Source: Candidatus Aenigmatarchaeota archaeon (GTDB lineage: Archaea > Aenigmatarchaeota > Aenigmatarchaeia > Aenigmatarchaeales > JACQIB01). From it: a DNA stretch of 64,000 nucleotides. Position numbers and translations under genes: made by a program. A model generated the notes under the pieces. The model searched no databases. It saw nothing but the letters and a program-made list of their open reading frames with translations, and was not told the DNA's origin. The stretch is from the NCBI GenBank assembly GCA_016198755.1, contig JACQIB010000004.1, positions 160,001 through 224,000 on the forward strand, in the 5' to 3' direction. Positions 2,303-44,278 of this stretch are shown here, one piece after another (the stretch's first letter is position 1; every line of letters begins with the position of its first letter).

Positions 2303-2962
2303 ATGTCCACTAGCACAAGCTCTGTTGTAGTAGCATTAATTATTGTTGTTCTTATTGGTTTATTTTTCTTACAGGTTTCTACTGGTTATATTACTACTAA
2401 TGGAGCATCAGTAACTCTTCCAGCTCCTGGAGGAAAACCAGATCTATATGTGAAAAGCATTAGTTTTTCCAATGGGAATTTAGTTACTGAAGTCGGGAAT
2501 AAAGGAGGTTTGGCTGCTACAATAAATGAAGATACTGTAGAGGCAGGAATACTCGGGAAGGATGGTATAGGACCTACAAAAGGATTATGCACTAATGAGG
2601 GAGCATATTGCAGCCCTGTATTTTACCCAAAATGCGGCGGGATAAAGCGTGCTGTTTGCAATACTAACACAAATCCAGGGCATTATTGTGCTTGTGGTTT
2701 CCCTTATGGAGATAATGAAAACAGTATAAAAAGCTATACAGTTCCGGCAGGTGGCAGCATCAAATTAAGCAAGTCTGTTTCCGGAATACCTGCGGATGAG
2801 TACCAGTTTGTTGTATCACTAGATACAAAGAATACTATAGCTGAGGCTGATGAAAACAATAACCAGCTTGCTAAAAATATAAAAATAACAGCTTCTACAC
2901 TTTCTCCTTTAGGCACACTATATAATAGGATAATATGCACAATTTTTAAGACTTCTTGCTGA
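2303..2962 (+). CDS. membrane-anchored CARDB-domain surface protein with Cys-rich insert
   Basis: N-terminal TM; KPDLYVKSI...VGNKG...DTKNTIAEADENNN CARDB motifs. Confidence 0.7.
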   Translation: MSTSTSSVVVALIIVVLIGLFFLQVSTGYITTNGASVTLPAPGGKPDLYVKSISFSNGNLVTEVGNKGGLAATINEDTVEAGILGKDGIGPTKGLCTNEGAYCSPVFYPKCGGIKRAVCNTNTNPGHYCACGFPYGDNENSIKSYTVPAGGSIKLSKSVSGIPADEYQFVVSLDTKNTIAEADENNNQLAKNIKITASTLSPLGTLYNRIICTIFKTSC

Positions 2963-3006
2963 TAGCTACGCAGTAGGCTTAAATATTTGGAAATCTATTC
3001 TGAGGT

Positions 3007-3645
3007 ATGGTTTTTAAGGAGCTGGCGGCTTTTGGCGGGAAAAAGAAGCCTTCTCAGAGGGATTTGGCGGAGGCTGTTCTGAAAGCTATACATACAATGG
3101 GTTTTGTAAGGCATTTTAAGGAAAAGGATATACCGCAGGATGTTCTGGATATGGTTTTGGAAGCTGGGACTAAAGCTCCGAGTGCTGGAAACCACCAACC
3201 ATGGGAATTTATAGTTGTTAGAGAAGAAGGGTTGAAAAAACATATACAGGAAGCTAGTTTTGAGGAAGACTGGATGATTTATGCTCCAGTCTATGTTGTT
3301 GTTTGTATAAACACTAAAATAGCTGCAACTACTTTTGGAGAGAGAGGAGAAAAGCTATATGGTATACAGGATACTGCAGCTGCAGCAGAGAACATGCTTT
3401 TGGCTGCCCATTCCCTTGGTTTGGGAGTAAGCTGGGTTGGTGGGTTCTCAGAACCGCAGGTTAAAACCCTTTTAGAATGCCCTGAATTTATCAGACCTGC
3501 AGCAATACTTTTGTTAGGCTGGCCAGCAGAAGAACCTGAATTGCACCCTCGCCATCCCTTATCACAGGTTTCCCATTATGAAAGATTTGGGAACAATGAG
3601 CAGTTTAAAAGATCAAACCCGCGCGAGCGCAGATATTCTCACTAG
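3007..3645 (+). CDS. nitroreductase family protein
   Basis: KAPSAGNHQPWEFIVV, AAAENMLLAAHSLGLGVSWVG. Confidence 0.9.
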   Translation: MVFKELAAFGGKKKPSQRDLAEAVLKAIHTMGFVRHFKEKDIPQDVLDMVLEAGTKAPSAGNHQPWEFIVVREEGLKKHIQEASFEEDWMIYAPVYVVVCINTKIAATTFGERGEKLYGIQDTAAAAENMLLAAHSLGLGVSWVGGFSEPQVKTLLECPEFIRPAAILLLGWPAEEPELHPRHPLSQVSHYERFGNNEQFKRSNPRERRYSH

Positions 3646-3697
3646 CAAAAACCCATGCTTTCTTAAAGGTTTCTTTCCAACTAAGTTTGGTTAATTT

Positions 3698-14430: not shown

Positions 14431-14516
14431 GCCCGGGTAGCTCAGCAGGAAGAGCGACTGGCTGTTAAATTGCGGAAACCAGTAGGTCGCAGGTTCGAGT
14501 CCTGCCTCGGGCGCCA
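14431..14516 (+). tRNA. tRNA-Asn(GTT) with 10-nt intron at 37/38 (14468-14477), CCA encoded
   Basis: Acceptor GCCCGGG/CTCGGGC, anticodon stem ACTGG/CCAGT, GGTTCGAGTCC T arm; CTGT/GCGG helix with bulge. Confidence 0.93.
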
Positions 14517-35787: not shown

Positions 35788-35917
35788 TGGTGGACTCGGT
35801 GGGATTTTCTCCAAACCCTTTTGGGGTTTGCAAAGACCTTTTCGGAAAAGGGATTTGCTTTGAACCCACAACCTCTTGCTTGCAAAGCAAGCGATCTTCC
35901 AGTTGATCTACGAGCCC
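35788..35917 (-). tRNA. tRNA-Ala(TGC) with 54-nt T-loop intron at 59/60 (35805-35858), CCA encoded
   Basis: Acceptor GGGCTCG/CGAGTCC, anticodon arm CTTGC-TT-TGC-AA-GCAAG; removing the insert restores GTGGG-TTCAAAT-CCCAC. Confidence 0.92.
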
Positions 35918-40411: not shown

Positions 40412-40462
40412 GTCGGTTGTTAGGAATTTTTGGAAATAGCTAAAGCTAAGCTGTAAAAATAG

Positions 40463-40494
40463 GTCGCGGCCGATGATATTAGCGCCCCGAATAA
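40463..40494 (-). other. 3' arm of 16S pre-rRNA processing stem with BHB
   Basis: Sense TTATTCGGGG-CGCT-AAT-ATCATCGGCCGCGAC pairs with 44021-44052. Confidence 0.8.
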
Positions 40495-40540
40495 AAAATT
40501 TTGGAGGTGATCCAGCCCCACGTTCCCGTAGGGCTACCTT

Positions 40541-40648
40541 CTCATAGGAGTGCAGCCTGGCAAAATTATCCCTCTCAATTCACCTCAGTCCCCACTTGGG
40601 GCCCGCCTTTCTTTCTTTCATAGAGGAAAAATACAGACTACACTTCCT
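40541..40648 (-). other. 16S intron 8 (108 nt, after E. coli ~C1501)
   Basis: Stem GGAAGTGTAGTCTG/CAGGCTGCACTCC; CATA/TATG helix; bulges ac|a and ag|a. Confidence 0.85.
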
Positions 40649-40650
40649 GT

Positions 40651-40681
40651 CTGTCAGTATTGCAGCTTTCACTGCAAAACA
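40651..40681 (-). other. 16S intron 7 (31 nt, after E. coli ~A1499)
   Basis: GTCA-ta|t-GTTTTGCAG...CTGCAATAC-TGAC-ag|a. Confidence 0.85.
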
Positions 40682-40822
40682 TATGACTTAGCCTTTCTTG
40701 TAAGTCTCTGGCTCGACTCTTCCCATACCCATTGCTGGAAACGAAAAAAGCCTCGCCAAAGGCTCACTCAAATGGCTTGACAGGCGGTGTGTGCAAAGAA
40801 CAGGGACGTATTCGGCGAACGA

Positions 40823-41667
40823 ATTCATGCTAGAAGCTTCGAAAAAGGTTTTATAATATTAATCAACTTATACACTGATTGATTAACAAGAACATCATTA
40901 TATTCTTCCTTTACAATATCTATAGCATCTTTTTGTATATTGCCTTCTAATATTGCTATCAATCTTACATAGGGATATTTTTGTCGAATTTTCATAGCTC
41001 TATAAGCAAGTTCTACGGCTTGCAAACGTTTCCTATAATTGAAATTCATTTGCTTTACCTCAATTATTATTTTGGGTATATTTTCAGAAGGCAAGGCAAA
41101 ATCTACTACAAAATTTCTATTGGTCCTCACTAGGGCATGAAACTTATGTGAAATGCCCAATTTCTGAAAGATTTCTATATATCTTTTTTCTTGTTCTGTA
41201 GGACCTTTTATTATTGCACCTTTCAGAGATCTTTCTTTAGACGCCTTTAAACTCATTTTTCTTGCGCGTTCAGTATCTCTAAAAGTGCCGCGTTCGGAAA
41301 TTTCATAATACCTGCGTATTAAGATTTCCCTAGAAGGAATTCTTTGCATGCATTTAATTTCTTCAAACACTTTGTTTATTACTTTTTCGTCTACACTTTT
41401 TCTAAATCCTTTCTCTATATTATAGACTGTGCCTTGACTCTTCCCTATAAACTTTGCTAATTGCCACTGACTCATATTCAATATTAAACGTAGAATCAGC
41501 AATCTCTGCGGTTTTGTATATATAATTTCAGGTTTCAGTTTCCTTAAACTGTCTGTTGTTCTATATACTTCATCACAGAGATTTTTTAATTTTAGCTTGT
41601 TTATGGTAATCACCGATATTATATTATATCGGTAACTACTATTTAACCCTTTACAGAGCTTCTAACT
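40823..41667 (-). mobile_element. 16S intron 6 (845 nt, helix 43 loop, E. coli ~1363) carrying an endonuclease-like ORF
   Basis: Full hBHBh': GGCGAACG/CGTTCGCC, TCAT/ATGA, bulges aa|a and at|t, GTTAGAAGCT/AGCTTCTAGC. Confidence 0.9.
40825..41613 (-). CDS. intron-encoded HTH(XRE) + PD-(D/E)XK-like putative homing endonuclease
   Basis: MSQWQLAKFIGKSQGTVYNIEKG HTH; PTEQE...VVDFAL...IIIEVK nuclease-like core; AT-rich, wholly inside intron. Confidence 0.75.
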   Translation of the reverse strand: MITINKLKLKNLCDEVYRTTDSLRKLKPEIIYTKPQRLLILRLILNMSQWQLAKFIGKSQGTVYNIEKGFRKSVDEKVINKVFEEIKCMQRIPSREILIRRYYEISERGTFRDTERARKMSLKASKERSLKGAIIKGPTEQEKRYIEIFQKLGISHKFHALVRTNRNFVVDFALPSENIPKIIIEVKQMNFNYRKRLQAVELAYRAMKIRQKYPYVRLIAILEGNIQKDAIDIVKEEYNDVLVNQSVYKLINIIKPFSKLLA

Positions 41668-41971
41668 TTATGACGTTCGCCTACTATGAATTCCGGCTTC
41701 ATGTGGGCGAGTTGCAGCCCACAATCTGGACTAAGATTGGGTTTAGGGGGTTAGCTTTGCCTTTCGGCATTGCATCCCATTGTCCCAACCATTGTAGGAC
41801 GCGTGTAGCCCAGAGAATTCGGGCCGTACGGACCTACCGTCGCCCACTCCTTCCTCTGCTTTAGCAGCAGCGGTCCCGCCATTGTGCTCTCTCCCCGGAG
41901 GGAAAGGTGGCAAATGGCAGCGTGGGTCTCGCTCGTTAACGGACTTAACCGCACGCCTCAAGGTACGAGCT

Positions 41972-42132
41972 TTCTCGTCTTAGCAGCCCTCATACAAAAC
42001 ATTATCTTACTTTTCTCTATGTTTTACATAATTAGCATTCCACCAACGTCGTATCAGTATTAAGTTTGAATACTGGTTGCATATCGTTGTTGAAATTTTT
42101 CAATATCCCAATTAAATTGAGACTGCCAAGAT
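41972..42132 (-). other. 16S intron 5 (161 nt, after E. coli ~C1066)
   Basis: ATCG-tc|a-TCTTGGCAGTC...GGCTGCTAAGA-CGAG-aa|a; restores CCATCGTCAGCTCG. Confidence 0.85.
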
Positions 42133-42675
42133 GACGATGGCCATGCAACTCCTCTCAGCTTGTCTGGTAAACCCGTTAGGCTGACCCTCATTCTGCTGTC
42201 TTCTCTGGTAAGATGTCCGGTGTTAAATCCAATTGAACCGCATCCTCCACTCATTGTGTGTTCCCCCGCCAATTCCTTTAAGTTTCAGCCTTGCGGCCGT
42301 ACTCCCCAGGTGGCCCGCTTAACATCTACACTTCGGCACTGCATGTTCACGTAGAACGTGCAACACCAAGCGGGCATCGTTTACGGCTGGGACTACTGGG
42401 GTATCTAATCCCAATCGCTCCCCCAGCTGTCGCCCCTCACTGTCAGACTCGTTTTCGGTAGACGCCTTCGCCACAGGTGGTCCTCCACGGATTAAAGGAT
42501 TTAACCCCTACACGTGGAATACCTCTACCGTCTCCCGATCTCAAGGCTTGGAGTATCTCCAGCGCGCCTGACAGTTAGCTGCCAGATTTCACCAGAGACT
42601 TTCAAGCCCAGCTACGGGCGCTTTAGACCCAATAAACGCGATAGCCATTTGGACCGCGGGTATTACCGCGGCGGC

Positions 42676-42706
42676 GTGTGCGAACAAAGTCTACTGACTT
42701 TGAACA
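42676..42706 (-). other. 16S intron 4 (31 nt, after E. coli ~A520)
   Basis: GTGC-ca|t-...CAAAGTC/GACTTTG...-GCAC-ac|g; restores GTGCCAGCCGCCGCGGTAA. Confidence 0.9.
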
Positions 42707-42918
42707 TGGCACCCGTCTTACCCAGTCCTTATTCGCCTAGGTTTTTAGCCTAAGCAAAAGCTCGTGCAAAGCACGAGCACTCGAGGTTCCCTTCTCACAC
42801 GCTAATGCATTGGAAAGTTTTCGCTCCTGCTGCGACCCGTAGGCCCTGCGCTCATGTCTCAGAGCGCATCTGGAGGCTCACACTCTCATGTCCCCTACCC
42901 GTCACAGGCTTGTCAGTT

Positions 42919-42979
42919 TTATAAAGCAGGTAGCTTATGCTACCAAAAATTATTTTGGCAAACTAAGTTTGCCTATGCA
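42919..42979 (-). other. 16S intron 3 (61 nt, helix 11 loop, E. coli ~265)
   Basis: GTCAGT/ACTGAC outer stem, GTAA/TTAT helix, bulges ag|t and aa|a. Confidence 0.8.
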
Positions 42980-43086
42980 CTTTACACTGACAACAACCTG
43001 ATAGGCCGCAGTCCCATTCTATGGCGCCGGAGCTTTCACTTTTGGTGCATTCCAGCATCCAAAAACTATGGGGCATTAGCCTCACT

Positions 43087-43115
43087 TTTGCGTTCACTTT
43101 CAAAAGAAAGTGGAA
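43087..43115 (-). other. 16S intron 2 (29 nt, helix 8 loop, E. coli ~161)
   Basis: TGCG-aa|t-..CACTTTC/GAAAGTG..-CGCA-aa|a; restores CTTGC-GAAA-GTGAG. Confidence 0.88.
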
Positions 43116-43161
43116 TTCGCAAGATTATTCCCCACCATAGAGTAGGTTAACTACGTGTTAC

Positions 43162-43833
43162 TCAGCAGTGCGCCGAGGGCAAGAGCGGATTAAATAGAAC
43201 CTTACCAGTCTTTTTACAATAAAAATAGTTTTTAAATTCCTTAGAAAGACATCTTACTTTTTCTAACTTTAGTGGATGTTTAAATTTTATTATTCTACAA
43301 AACTTTCTAAAATTTTTAGCACCTTTTATTCGCCACCAATATACATCGTTTTTTCCATAAACTTTTGATACATGAATACCATATGTTTCTAATAATTCTT
43401 TACTCCATATGCAAAAATCCTTAGATTTAATTTGTAGTTCTATTACAGGATATTCATATATAGACATCATGGTCTTTCTCTTATACCTTTGGACTTCTTT
43501 GAATACGGAACAATCACCATCAAAAAATCCTATAAGAAAATTCATCTTTTCTTTTCTATTTATGTGCACTGGTGGAGTGATGTCATGAGACTTTTTCCCT
43601 GGTTTTATATGATAAAGTCTCTTAAATTTTTCGTATAGCTTACGATCACTTACCCTTATCTGAAATACTCTTTTTCTTAATTTGTAAGTAACCTTGTTTT
43701 TTGCAAATTTTTGAAGATTTTTTACTATATCATCTCTGAAGCGCTTGTTATTTGTGTAGACATAGACATACGGTCTATATTTTTCTAAATGACCATCTGC
43801 AGCTATTAAACCGGCCATATAAGAAAATTTCAT
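43162..43833 (-). CDS. double-motif LAGLIDADG homing endonuclease (intron-encoded)
   Basis: YMAGLIAADG and FLIGFFDGDCS motifs. Confidence 0.93.
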   Translation of the reverse strand: MKFSYMAGLIAADGHLEKYRPYVYVYTNNKRFRDDIVKNLQKFAKNKVTYKLRKRVFQIRVSDRKLYEKFKRLYHIKPGKKSHDITPPVHINRKEKMNFLIGFFDGDCSVFKEVQRYKRKTMMSIYEYPVIELQIKSKDFCIWSKELLETYGIHVSKVYGKNDVYWWRIKGAKNFRKFCRIIKFKHPLKLEKVRCLSKEFKNYFYCKKTGKVLFNPLLPSAHC

Positions 43834-43901
43834 ATATTATTCTATGACGATATACAACTTATAGATTTCTATGTTTCGTTAGTAGTGTTCTACTTAATCC
43901 T
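43181..43901 (-). mobile_element. 16S intron 1 (721 nt, helix 6) with LAGLIDADG ORF
   Basis: GGATTAAGTAGAAC/GTTCTATTTAATCC terminal stem, GGGT/GCTC helix, bulges aa|a and tt|g; boundaries +/-1 nt. Confidence 0.88.
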
Positions 43902-44020
43902 TTACCCCTCTCGGCTCGCATGGATAAATCGAACCCCGATAACGGCTATCTCCGGCAGGATCAACCGGAATTAAATTAGGGGGGATTTCACAAACCTAAT
44001 GGTTTGCGTTCCCTGTTTTC

Positions 44021-44052
44021 TTACTCGGAGTTTCGCTAACATCAGCCACGAC
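44021..44052 (-). other. 5' arm of 16S pre-rRNA processing stem with BHB
   Basis: Sense GTCGTGGCTGATGTT-AGCG-AAA-CTCCGAGTAA pairs with 40463-40494. Confidence 0.8.
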
Positions 44053-44278
44053 TTCTAATCATGAACTCATCCGCACCCGCGCGCGCTTCCAAATTTCCCT
44101 CGCACTGGTCCGCTCATTGCTGCGTAAGCAGCTCGTTTGTATTTTTTCCCACAGGTTGGAACTGGGATGCTCATAGCGAGTTTACACTCTTGCTTGCAGC
44201 CCACACAGAAAGAGATGGAACAGCAGCGCCGTACCATTCATTTTGCCTGTGAGTACAGACTATAATAGCGTTATCGAA

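Follow-up and report, generated by a model that had tools for sequence, protein, structure and literature searches.

The window analysed, a stretch of 64,000 nucleotides (nt) from a Candidatus Aenigmatarchaeota archaeon, carries on its minus strand, at 40502-43971, a 16S ribosomal RNA (rRNA) gene whose 3470 nt consist of nine exon blocks (1483 nt) and eight inserts (1987 nt, 57%). The gene is the sole small-subunit (SSU) rRNA match in its genome, an assembly of 890,842 bases in six contigs with 40% G+C. The Rfam model for archaeal SSU rRNA, RF01959, matches the minus strand at 41601-43226 (1035 bits) and in doing so pushes both model ends onto unrelated sequence. In separate searches of the flanks, the true 5′ end is at 43971 (ATTCCGGTTGATCC..., reading ATTCCGGTTGATCCTGCCGGAG), and the 3′ part, comprising the 1400 region, helix 44 (h44; other helices are named likewise) and GAATACGTCCCTG... 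through to GGATCACCTCC, lies at 40822-40503.

Exon 1 (43902-43971) extends from the 5′ end to the 5′ half of h6. Exons 2 (43116-43180), 3 (42980-43086), 4 (42707-42918), 5 (42133-42675) and 6 (41668-41971) are delimited by blastn blocks and by alignment of the spliced sequence, with the Rfam match also contributing for exon 5. Exon 7 (40682-40822) comprises the 1400 region and h44, a 2-nt exon, AC (40649-40650; E. coli A1500 and C1501), stands where relatives read ...GTCATAACAAGG..., and exon 9 (40502-40540) is h45 with the anti-Shine-Dalgarno end; all are on the minus strand. The intervening inserts, I1 to I8, measure 721, 29, 61, 31, 161, 845, 31 and 108 nt. Their boundaries emerge as breaks between exon blocks in blastn comparison with the 16S genes of five relatives, which show no internal insert in that comparison, though two of them (L010 and L012) carry an insert near their own 3′ end. 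Once the inserts are removed, the 1483-nt sequence aligns with L004, L008, L010 and L012 at 80-82% identity and with a gap at none of the eight junctions; L010 and L012 diverge from it just past junctions 7 and 8, where their own inserts begin. An initial annotation of the locus had proposed eight inserts totalling 1987 nt, with a remainder of about 1483 nt, a normal 16S length, and both the blastn breaks and the splicing-out test reproduce its coordinates exactly, the product being colinear and gap-free at the junctions. Its description of the genome as DPANN-like likewise stands, with a size of 0.89 Mb, 40% GC and carriers of I6-type introns that are labelled Nanoarchaeota and Micrarchaeota.

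The view that all eight inserts behave as bulge-helix-bulge (BHB) introns is supported by the motifs at their boundaries. The geometry tested there was an outer helix, a 4-nt central helix, a 3-nt bulge cut after its second nucleotide and an inner helix, with a mirrored 3′ strand. Both bulges are 3 nt and cut following the second nucleotide in every one of the eight, and the 4-bp central helix is fully paired in the primary transcript in six (I1, I2, I3, I4, I6 and I7). Again on the minus strand throughout, I1 (43181-43901) reads GGGU[AA|A]...GCUC[UU|G], with central GGGU/GCUC 4/4, seven outer pairs and 12 inner pairs, and I6 (40823-41667) reads UCAU[AA|A]...AUGA[AU|U], with central UCAU/AUGA 4/4, nine outer pairs and 10-11 inner. 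I2 (43087-43115; UGCG[AA|U]...CGCA[AA|A], central UGCG/CGCA 4/4) has two outer pairs, and I3 (42919-42979; GUAA[AG|U]...UUAU[AA|A], central GUAA/UUAU 4/4) has eight together with a weak inner helix. For I4 (42676-42706) the strings are GUGC[CA|U]...GCAC[AC|G] with central GUGC/GCAC 4/4. I5 (41972-42132), which lacks an open reading frame (ORF), has central AUCG/CGAG at 3/4, including one A.G, and an inner helix of 11-12 pairs. I7 (40651-40681; GUCA[UA|U]...UGAC[AG|A], central GUCA/UGAC 4/4) has nine inner pairs and no outer helix, and I8 (40541-40648) reads CAUA[AC|A]...UAUG[AG|A], its central helix being ACAG/UAUG, 1/4, in the primary transcript and CAUA/UAUG, 4/4, without I7. Both flanking helices are thus good for I1 and I6, whereas I2, I7 and I8 have an outer helix of 0-2 pairs and I3 a weak inner helix, so that several motifs are of a relaxed form rather than the strict hBHBh′ form. 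With regard to the 4-bp helix, 3-nt bulges and closing stem that the initial annotation attributed to each insert, the bulges are universal, the helix is intact in six, reaches 3/4 in I5 and forms in I8 only after removal of I7, and the closing stem is variable.

When inserts of identical lengths were placed at random in the region 200,000 times, a fully paired central helix arose with a frequency of 2.4%, from which the probability of at least six of eight is 5e-9 and of at least seven of eight 4e-11. Folding covered the six introns of 161 nt or less. Folds constrained to the BHB form lie 0.5-3.3 kcal/mol above the unconstrained minimum (I2, I3, I4, I5, I7, and I8 minus I7), and when I2, I4 and I7 are folded with their flanks and without constraint, both the central helix and the inner hairpin are recovered.

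For E. coli numbering, the spliced sequence was aligned to a 1539-nt E. coli rrs copy and the numbers were corrected by 2-3 nt with the landmarks A1492/A1493, A1518/A1519, the 515F site and the primer site at 1100-1114; the helix names follow our reading of the standard 16S structure. I1 then falls in the hairpin loop of h6 (about position 79), I2 in the GNRA loop of h8 (161/162), I3 in the h11 loop (265/266), I4 in the 530 loop (520/521, GUGCCA|GCCGCC), I5 in h34 (1066/1067, CGUC|AGCUCG), I6 in the h43 loop (about 1363/1364), and I7 and I8 at the junction of h44 and h45 (1499/1500 and 1501/1502). The suggestion that several inserts occupy functional centres is therefore sustained for the 530 loop (520), h34 (1066/1067) and the h44/h45 junction (1499 and 1501), on the numbering as corrected with these landmarks. 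Inserts of 31-161 nt retained in the 530 loop, h34 and the 1500 region (I4, I5, I7 and I8) would be hard to square with function. For Thermoproteales, 13 intron loci in 16S genes, at 374, 548, 722, 781, 803, 901, 908, 919, 978, 1093, 1205, 1213 and 1391, are given by Jay & Inskeep 2015 (PMC4496867), where the variable regions are stated to be intron-free. None of the eight sites coincides with any of these 13, which bears out, against those published loci, the idea that unreported sites might be involved. Locus 548 interrupts no primer (PMC4496867), whereas I4 lies inside the 515F/519 target, which we take to mean that the numbering is not simply offset. Group I introns have been reported at SSU/1498 in other DPANN (Nawrocki 2018, PMC6125680), and I7 (31 nt) and I8 (108 nt) are too small to be such introns.

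The arrangement of I7 and I8 merits separate consideration, as I7 is inserted 2 nt upstream of I8 and interrupts the central helix of its BHB. The I7 motif is complete in the primary transcript, whereas that of I8 is incomplete until I7 has gone. An intron homologous to I8 is found at the 1501 site in 11 relatives (104-278 nt), in which the central CAUA/UAUG derives from contiguous exon sequence; 10 of the 11 have ACA as their 5′ bulge. When the present gene is included, the central helix is 4/4 in 11 of 12 genes, with a compensated CGUA/UACG in L021, and the inner helix has several pair types per position (at position 1, GC in five, AU in five and GU in two of the 12). Since I7 breaks the central helix of I8, ordered splicing is implied, in which I7 would be removed before I8 and the conserved AC left as a 2-nt exon. 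Near the same place, 1-3 nt upstream of the I7 and I8 sites, L012 carries a 754-nt insert (about 2940-3695) with a 169-amino-acid (aa) ORF having LAGLIDADG-like motifs; its central helix is 4/4 without outer or inner pairs, and it adjoins the site SSU/1498, known for group I introns (Nawrocki 2018). The generic Rfam model for group I introns, which is insensitive, gave no match in that 754-nt insert.

Inserts are widespread in relatives. Of 41 genomes searched, 28 have an SSU match, and gap-tolerant alignment of their 30 loci reveals inserts at many sites. In the 21 well-covered loci, 45 of 56 inserts of at least 20 nt have a 4/4 central helix and at least six flanking pairs within 6 nt on either side of the alignment boundary, compared with 281 of 2800 random controls, 7 of the 56 coming from the 40502-43971 gene itself. 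The I4 site (spliced coordinate 454) is occupied, with the same geometry, in L015 (69 nt) and L017 (59 nt), the I3 site (240-242) in L015, L017 and L024, the I2 site (129-133) in L011, where the BHB intron is 419 nt, and L023, and the I8 site (1444) in eleven loci. At the I6 site (1301) homologous introns of 93 nt in L015, 847 nt in L018/L037 and 843/844 nt in L035 and L036 occur, and the central helix covaries, being UCAU/AUGA here and UCAC/GUGA in L035 and L036. I1, I5 and I7 were not seen in any of the 29 other loci aligned. BHB-supported inserts number about six in the L017 gene and about five in that of L015. From a broader perspective, 39 of 70 16S matches in a sample of the class span more than 1700 nt, the longest 3493 nt; these 70 are the ones with full model coverage and a score of at least 840 bits, and spans understate inserts, as for the 40502-43971 gene. 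L037, a Nanoarchaeota record, and the same-order relative G023 share the same inserts and BHB strings, which suggests that the two are probably one genome.

Eight introns in one gene had been called extreme. That is so in comparison with the published Thermoproteales record but does not amount to singularity, given the roughly five or six in a single gene of some relatives; the gene stands at the extreme of a trait shared by its lineage and is not a singular oddity. A description of BHB introns in DPANN 16S genes was not found in the literature covered, subscription journals and supplements being outside its scope. That introns are frequent in DPANN 16S genes has been remarked in general terms (PMC7906910, PMC7507113), and for Micrarchaeota a single 16S insert at 1093 has been described, with splicing called uncertain (PMC8784108). 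In this regard, the GUUAAGUCC region of h35-h36 contains, in two Micrarchaeota-labelled genomes, an insert of 517-532 nt (L035:1616-2147 and L036:1625-2141) that is BHB-like with a 9-pair inner helix in L035 and weak in L036 (inner helix of three pairs, no outer), and it may be the ‘position 1093’ insert of ARMAN-2 and ARM-1.

The two long inserts are almost wholly coding, ORFs filling 672 of the 721 nt of I1 and 789 of the 845 nt of I6. The I1 ORF (43162-43833, minus strand, 223 aa), whose last codons cross the 3′ splice site into exon 2, matches LAGLIDADG_3, PF14528, in two stretches (E 1.8e-14; 54.2 bits against a cut-off of 22.5). Two LAGLIDADG motifs, MAGLIAADG and LIGFFDGDC, were read by eye, and the domain assignment extends to their acidic residues. 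The I6 ORF (40825-41613, minus strand, 262 aa), whose stop codon is in the central BHB helix, is of a different kind. It has an N-terminal Cro/C1-type helix-turn-helix (HTH), which is its only Pfam match, and a C-terminal domain with a predicted PD-(D/E)XK fold. A profile search with it gave 288 representatives at E ≤ 1e-3, including 115 at E ≤ 1e-10. In the structure predicted from a 59-sequence alignment (pLDDT, the model's confidence score, 91.7), the C-terminal half is alpha-beta-beta-beta-alpha-beta, with helices at 140-151 and 195-212 and strands at 157-162, 168-174, 182-189 and 217-224. D171, E185 and K187, i.e. D171 with E185-x-K187, are invariant in an alignment of five sequences (A1), and D171 and E185 are at least 90% conserved in the 59. 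The best Foldseek matches of the model in the PDB are PD-(D/E)XK restriction enzymes, the list being PspGI (E 2.8e-4), Ecl18kI, BstEII, BbvCI and AF1548, and the N-terminal half resembles Cro/C1-type repressors. Four of the 59 family members match DUF559 and three HSDR_N, while a sequence search of the PDB with A1 returned HTH proteins only. Judged on the model, the C-terminal domain is a member of the PD-(D/E)XK superfamily and a predicted nuclease.

Relevant to the role of this protein is where its family resides. Besides the gene under study, an I6-type ORF is present at the same 16S site in G023/L037, L035 and L036, and in the latter two, Micrarchaeota-labelled, genomes the BHB reads UCAC[CA|A]...GUGA[AA|U]. 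A search of 371 genomes of the class found family matches in 38. Of 30 loci retrieved, 16 have 16S exons on both sides, two have them on one side, and 12 lie outside rRNA; the strongest loci are in 16S genes in 13 of 15 cases, at about five sites. Ten of 14 tested loci with flanking exons on both sides have a 4/4 central helix and at least six flanking pairs within 2 nt of the alignment boundary (five at spliced position 1135, four at 844-846 and one at 885), and the other four (L044, L050, L052 and L063) have weak or shifted motifs. A scan of metagenome contigs gave no relative. By its location, at a fixed 16S site in distant hosts with intron-less alleles around, the family fits the class of homing endonucleases, of which it would be a predicted member, and no report of a non-LAGLIDADG endonuclease in archaeal BHB introns was found within the same limits of literature. 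As to the diversity of the family, some of its members (among P0021-P0045) have two to four tandem profile copies, one 1927-aa protein has 11 matched stretches, and one non-rRNA locus, L042, adjoins a tRNA gene.

The enzymes that the proposed splicing calls for are encoded in the genome. Two tandem, overlapping, full-length EndA genes, for 178 and 173 aa, are located at 37787-38576 of contig C1 (L002:1462-2521), each with PF01974 and PF02778, and this arrangement suggests a heteromeric splicing endonuclease. By eye, the catalytic His/Lys positions appear to differ between the paralogs. DPANN lineages with insert-bearing EndAs have been noted to have more disrupted tRNA genes (PMC5829648). The gene for RtcB is also present (PF01139, 469.8 bits). 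Its match is split (contig C5:42797-45628, L034), with model positions 1-50 and 48-426 about 1.44 kb apart in one 1010-aa frame, which looks like a putative intein in the ligase.

Sequencing runs provide a further type of evidence. Four DNA runs of one groundwater study (X1-X4) contain more than 90% of sampled words, and one of them may be the source of the DNA at 40502-43971. Contigs from run X2 with zero differences cover 40511-41879, 41850-42251, 42394-42736, 42707-43175 and 43149-44050, and every insert is bridged independently. Alleles without I1, in which exons 1 and 2 are joined with 7 or 2 other letters between them, are found in DNA runs X2 and X5, hence I1-less relatives exist, and I4 in a relative from run X5 has two changes that turn the closing pair of its hairpin from C-G to U-A, a compensatory substitution. 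The initial annotation had proposed mapping metatranscriptome reads across the junctions. This was productive to the extent that joints at I3, I4 and I5 were seen, from relatives (an RNA contig of one joins 42918|42980, the I3 junction, exactly), with none attributable to the organism of 40502-43971; I1, I6, I7 and I8 have no cover in RNA runs X19 and X20.

Beyond what is directly observed, i.e. the anatomy of the gene, the colinearity of its spliced form, the motifs, the covariation, the presence or absence of inserts in relatives and the enzyme genes, we consider it highly probable that the single 16S gene specifies a precursor of about 3.5 kb with eight BHB introns that is spliced by EndA and RtcB; cleavage, ligation, their order and the endonuclease activity are the parts that we infer. 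Minus-strand transcription would yield this precursor, the two EndA paralogs would cut both 3-nt bulges of each motif, and RtcB would join the exons to give a 1483-nt rRNA. I7 would leave first and then I8, two cuts thereby setting off the 2-nt exon AC (E. coli 1500-1501), and the spliced 3′ end would read ...GUCAUAACAAGG.... At the DNA level, I1 and I6 may be, or may formerly have been, mobile through the endonucleases they encode, and the six introns without ORFs would be mini-introns that have probably degenerated or been co-converted.

Several observations weigh against this interpretation. The RNA runs X19 and X20, which contain about 6% of the sampled words, yielded only conserved parts of relatives with many differences, and the exact RNA joints at I3, I4 and I5 could stem from intron-less genes, those at I4 and I5 occurring in DNA runs also. 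The outer helix is absent or nearly so for I2, I7 and I8, and in the unconstrained fold the 5′ bulge of I3 is absorbed into a 7-bp helix. In I5 the A.G stands within the central helix, and a fully paired register would leave two extra nt in h34. The boundaries of I1 and I3 are in variable loops, where a shift of 1 nt at each splice site also gives 4/4 and a product 2 nt shorter. For the I6 protein, the Foldseek TM-score over the whole two-domain structure is low (0.35). The alternative registers for I1, I3 and I5 were set aside, those of the initial annotation matching the loop lengths or conserved sequence of relatives.

One different reading is that some inserts, most plausibly I1, I2, I3 and I6, are not spliced and are instead expansion segments, or are excised without ligation to leave a fragmented 16S rRNA. 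It is a matter of general knowledge that h6, h8, h11 and h43 are surface hairpins on which extra RNA is sterically conceivable, and the lack of RNA attributable to the organism in X19 and X20 suits such a reading. However, these four have the best motifs, the outer helix reaching 7-9 pairs in I1, I3 and I6, two of them are almost wholly ORF, inserts at the same sites come and go and vary in length in relatives (29 and 419 nt, 93 and 845 nt), and an RtcB gene is present; we consider the reading improbable. Comparably improbable is that I7, ‘AC’ and I8 are a single 139-nt intron, with central CAUA/UAUG, a 5′ bulge UG|U and an rRNA that reads UG and not AC at 1500-1501. That register also has a 4/4 central helix and leaves the product length unchanged, but its inner helix is almost absent (H3 = 1), whereas I7 alone is a clean motif with a 9-bp inner helix and without it the I8 motif is the same as in the 11 relatives (B1 being ACA in 10). 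All four aligned relatives that reach 1500-1501 moreover read ATAAC before AAGG or before their own insert.

A self-splicing nature of the two long inserts, as introns of group I or group II, has some precedent, with group I introns, which also carry endonuclease ORFs, being known from DPANN rRNA genes, at SSU/1498 among other sites (Nawrocki 2018, PMC6125680). Neither Intron_gpI nor a group II model matches at the Rfam gathering threshold in the window or in the loci of 17 relatives, with the proviso that the generic group I model misses some subtypes (PMC6125680). The ORFs leave too little RNA in I1 and I6 for a ribozyme core, and both show the canonical BHB motif, in which the outer and the inner helix are long; we regard a self-splicing origin as very unlikely. 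Slighter still is the chance of a chimeric assembly or a dead gene at this locus. The source is, it is true, a metagenome-assembled genome in six contigs, but each insert is spanned by independent contigs from a second sample that show 0 differences, the gene is the only SSU match in the genome, and its exons are intact, 80-82% identical to those of relatives and free of gaps at the junctions.

Other RNA features of this genome were noted as well. Strands of a 16S processing stem flank the gene, both on the minus strand, the 5′ one at 44017-44068 with a 3-nt bulge at 44031-44033 and the 3′ one at 40448-40498 with a 3-nt bulge at 40476-40478. Their co-fold has -101 kcal/mol (-82 ± 4.8 in 100 shuffles of the 3′ flank), and the opposed bulges are separated by 6 bp in the fold of minimum energy, although a register with 4 bp can be drawn too. 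The 23S rRNA gene is on a different contig from the 16S gene (C5:27827-32081; L001:1501-5755), and its 4255 nt, against a model of 2987 positions, point to inserts of about 1.27 kb in all. An ORF of 309 aa within the gene (L001:2813-3742) has LAGLIDADG-like motifs, and no group I model matches at threshold there. Elsewhere in the window, at 35848-35917 on the minus strand, positions 8-63 of the tRNA model are matched (E 0.018), the anticodon being GCA and the T-loop having extra nucleotides. This partial match is missed by ARAGORN, no matching 3′ acceptor strand was seen in the 60 nt that follow, and a split tRNA or one interrupted by a non-canonical intron may be present. For the tRNA at 14431-14516 on the plus strand, Rfam has an 11-nt insert after the anticodon loop while ARAGORN calls tRNA-Leu(taa) with no intron.

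If the interpretation is correct, the function of the sole 16S gene in a genome of less than 1 Mb relies on eight splicing events that need protein, one of which is ordered, and EndA and RtcB would consequently be unusually essential for ribosome biogenesis. From a practical perspective, I4 lies in the target of the 515F/519 primers and I7/I8 in that of 1492R, which would make hosts hard to detect in standard 16S amplicon surveys, and introns in primer sites bear on counts of DPANN diversity. The family of HTH plus PD-(D/E)XK ORFs is a candidate homing-endonuclease scaffold with long rRNA targets. The presence or absence of introns across Nanoarchaeota- and Micrarchaeota-labelled genomes offers material on the spread of BHB introns and their decay to mini-introns. 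The features that look new are the eight unlisted sites, ordered splicing via a 2-nt exon and the HTH plus PD-(D/E)XK family of intron ORFs. The proposition taken whole, namely that a homing-endonuclease family of this type, of which no report in archaeal introns was found, moves BHB introns among 16S genes across DPANN lineages, in one case to the point where 57% of the gene is intron, with an obligatory two-step splice via a 2-nt exon for maturation of the decoding-site end and eight new sites interrupting both 515F and 1492R, is one to which we would give an even chance.

Partial parallels exist in several known systems. Thermoproteales tRNA genes can have multiple BHB introns with relaxed motifs, for which ordered removal has been proposed; the host RNA there is a tRNA and here 16S rRNA. 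I-Ssp6803I, a homing endonuclease of the PD-(D/E)XK type from a group I intron of cyanobacteria, is, as predicted also for the I6 protein, a nuclease of restriction-enzyme fold within an intron of a gene for a stable RNA; intron class and host are different, and the I6 protein has in addition an N-terminal HTH. Another close counterpart is the set of 16S introns of Thermoproteales and Desulfurococcales (PMC4496867), surveyed by Jay & Inskeep as about 230 introns in about 115 genes. They too have BHB junctions, consist of long introns with homing endonucleases and hairpin mini-introns of less than 50 nt, and are placed in conserved parts of the rRNA where they interrupt universal primer sites. 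In contrast, the present gene has three sites in V1/V2 hairpin loops, its host is a mesophilic groundwater DPANN archaeon, and one of its ORFs is not LAGLIDADG. A pair from Pyrobaculum oguniense, Pog.S1205/S1213 (PMC4496867), resembles I7/I8 in that a mini-intron without an ORF is a few nt from a second intron. However, those two are 8 nt apart with independent motifs, whereas I7 and I8 are 2 nt apart, I7 interrupts the central helix of I8 and neither has an ORF. Insertions in rRNA of the Candidate Phyla Radiation and group I introns of DPANN (PMC11270868, PMC6125680) also involve ultra-small groundwater organisms, insertion-rich rRNA and endonuclease ORFs, but they are group I, group II or uncharacterised, whereas the introns considered here are of the BHB type and would depend on a protein endonuclease for their removal.

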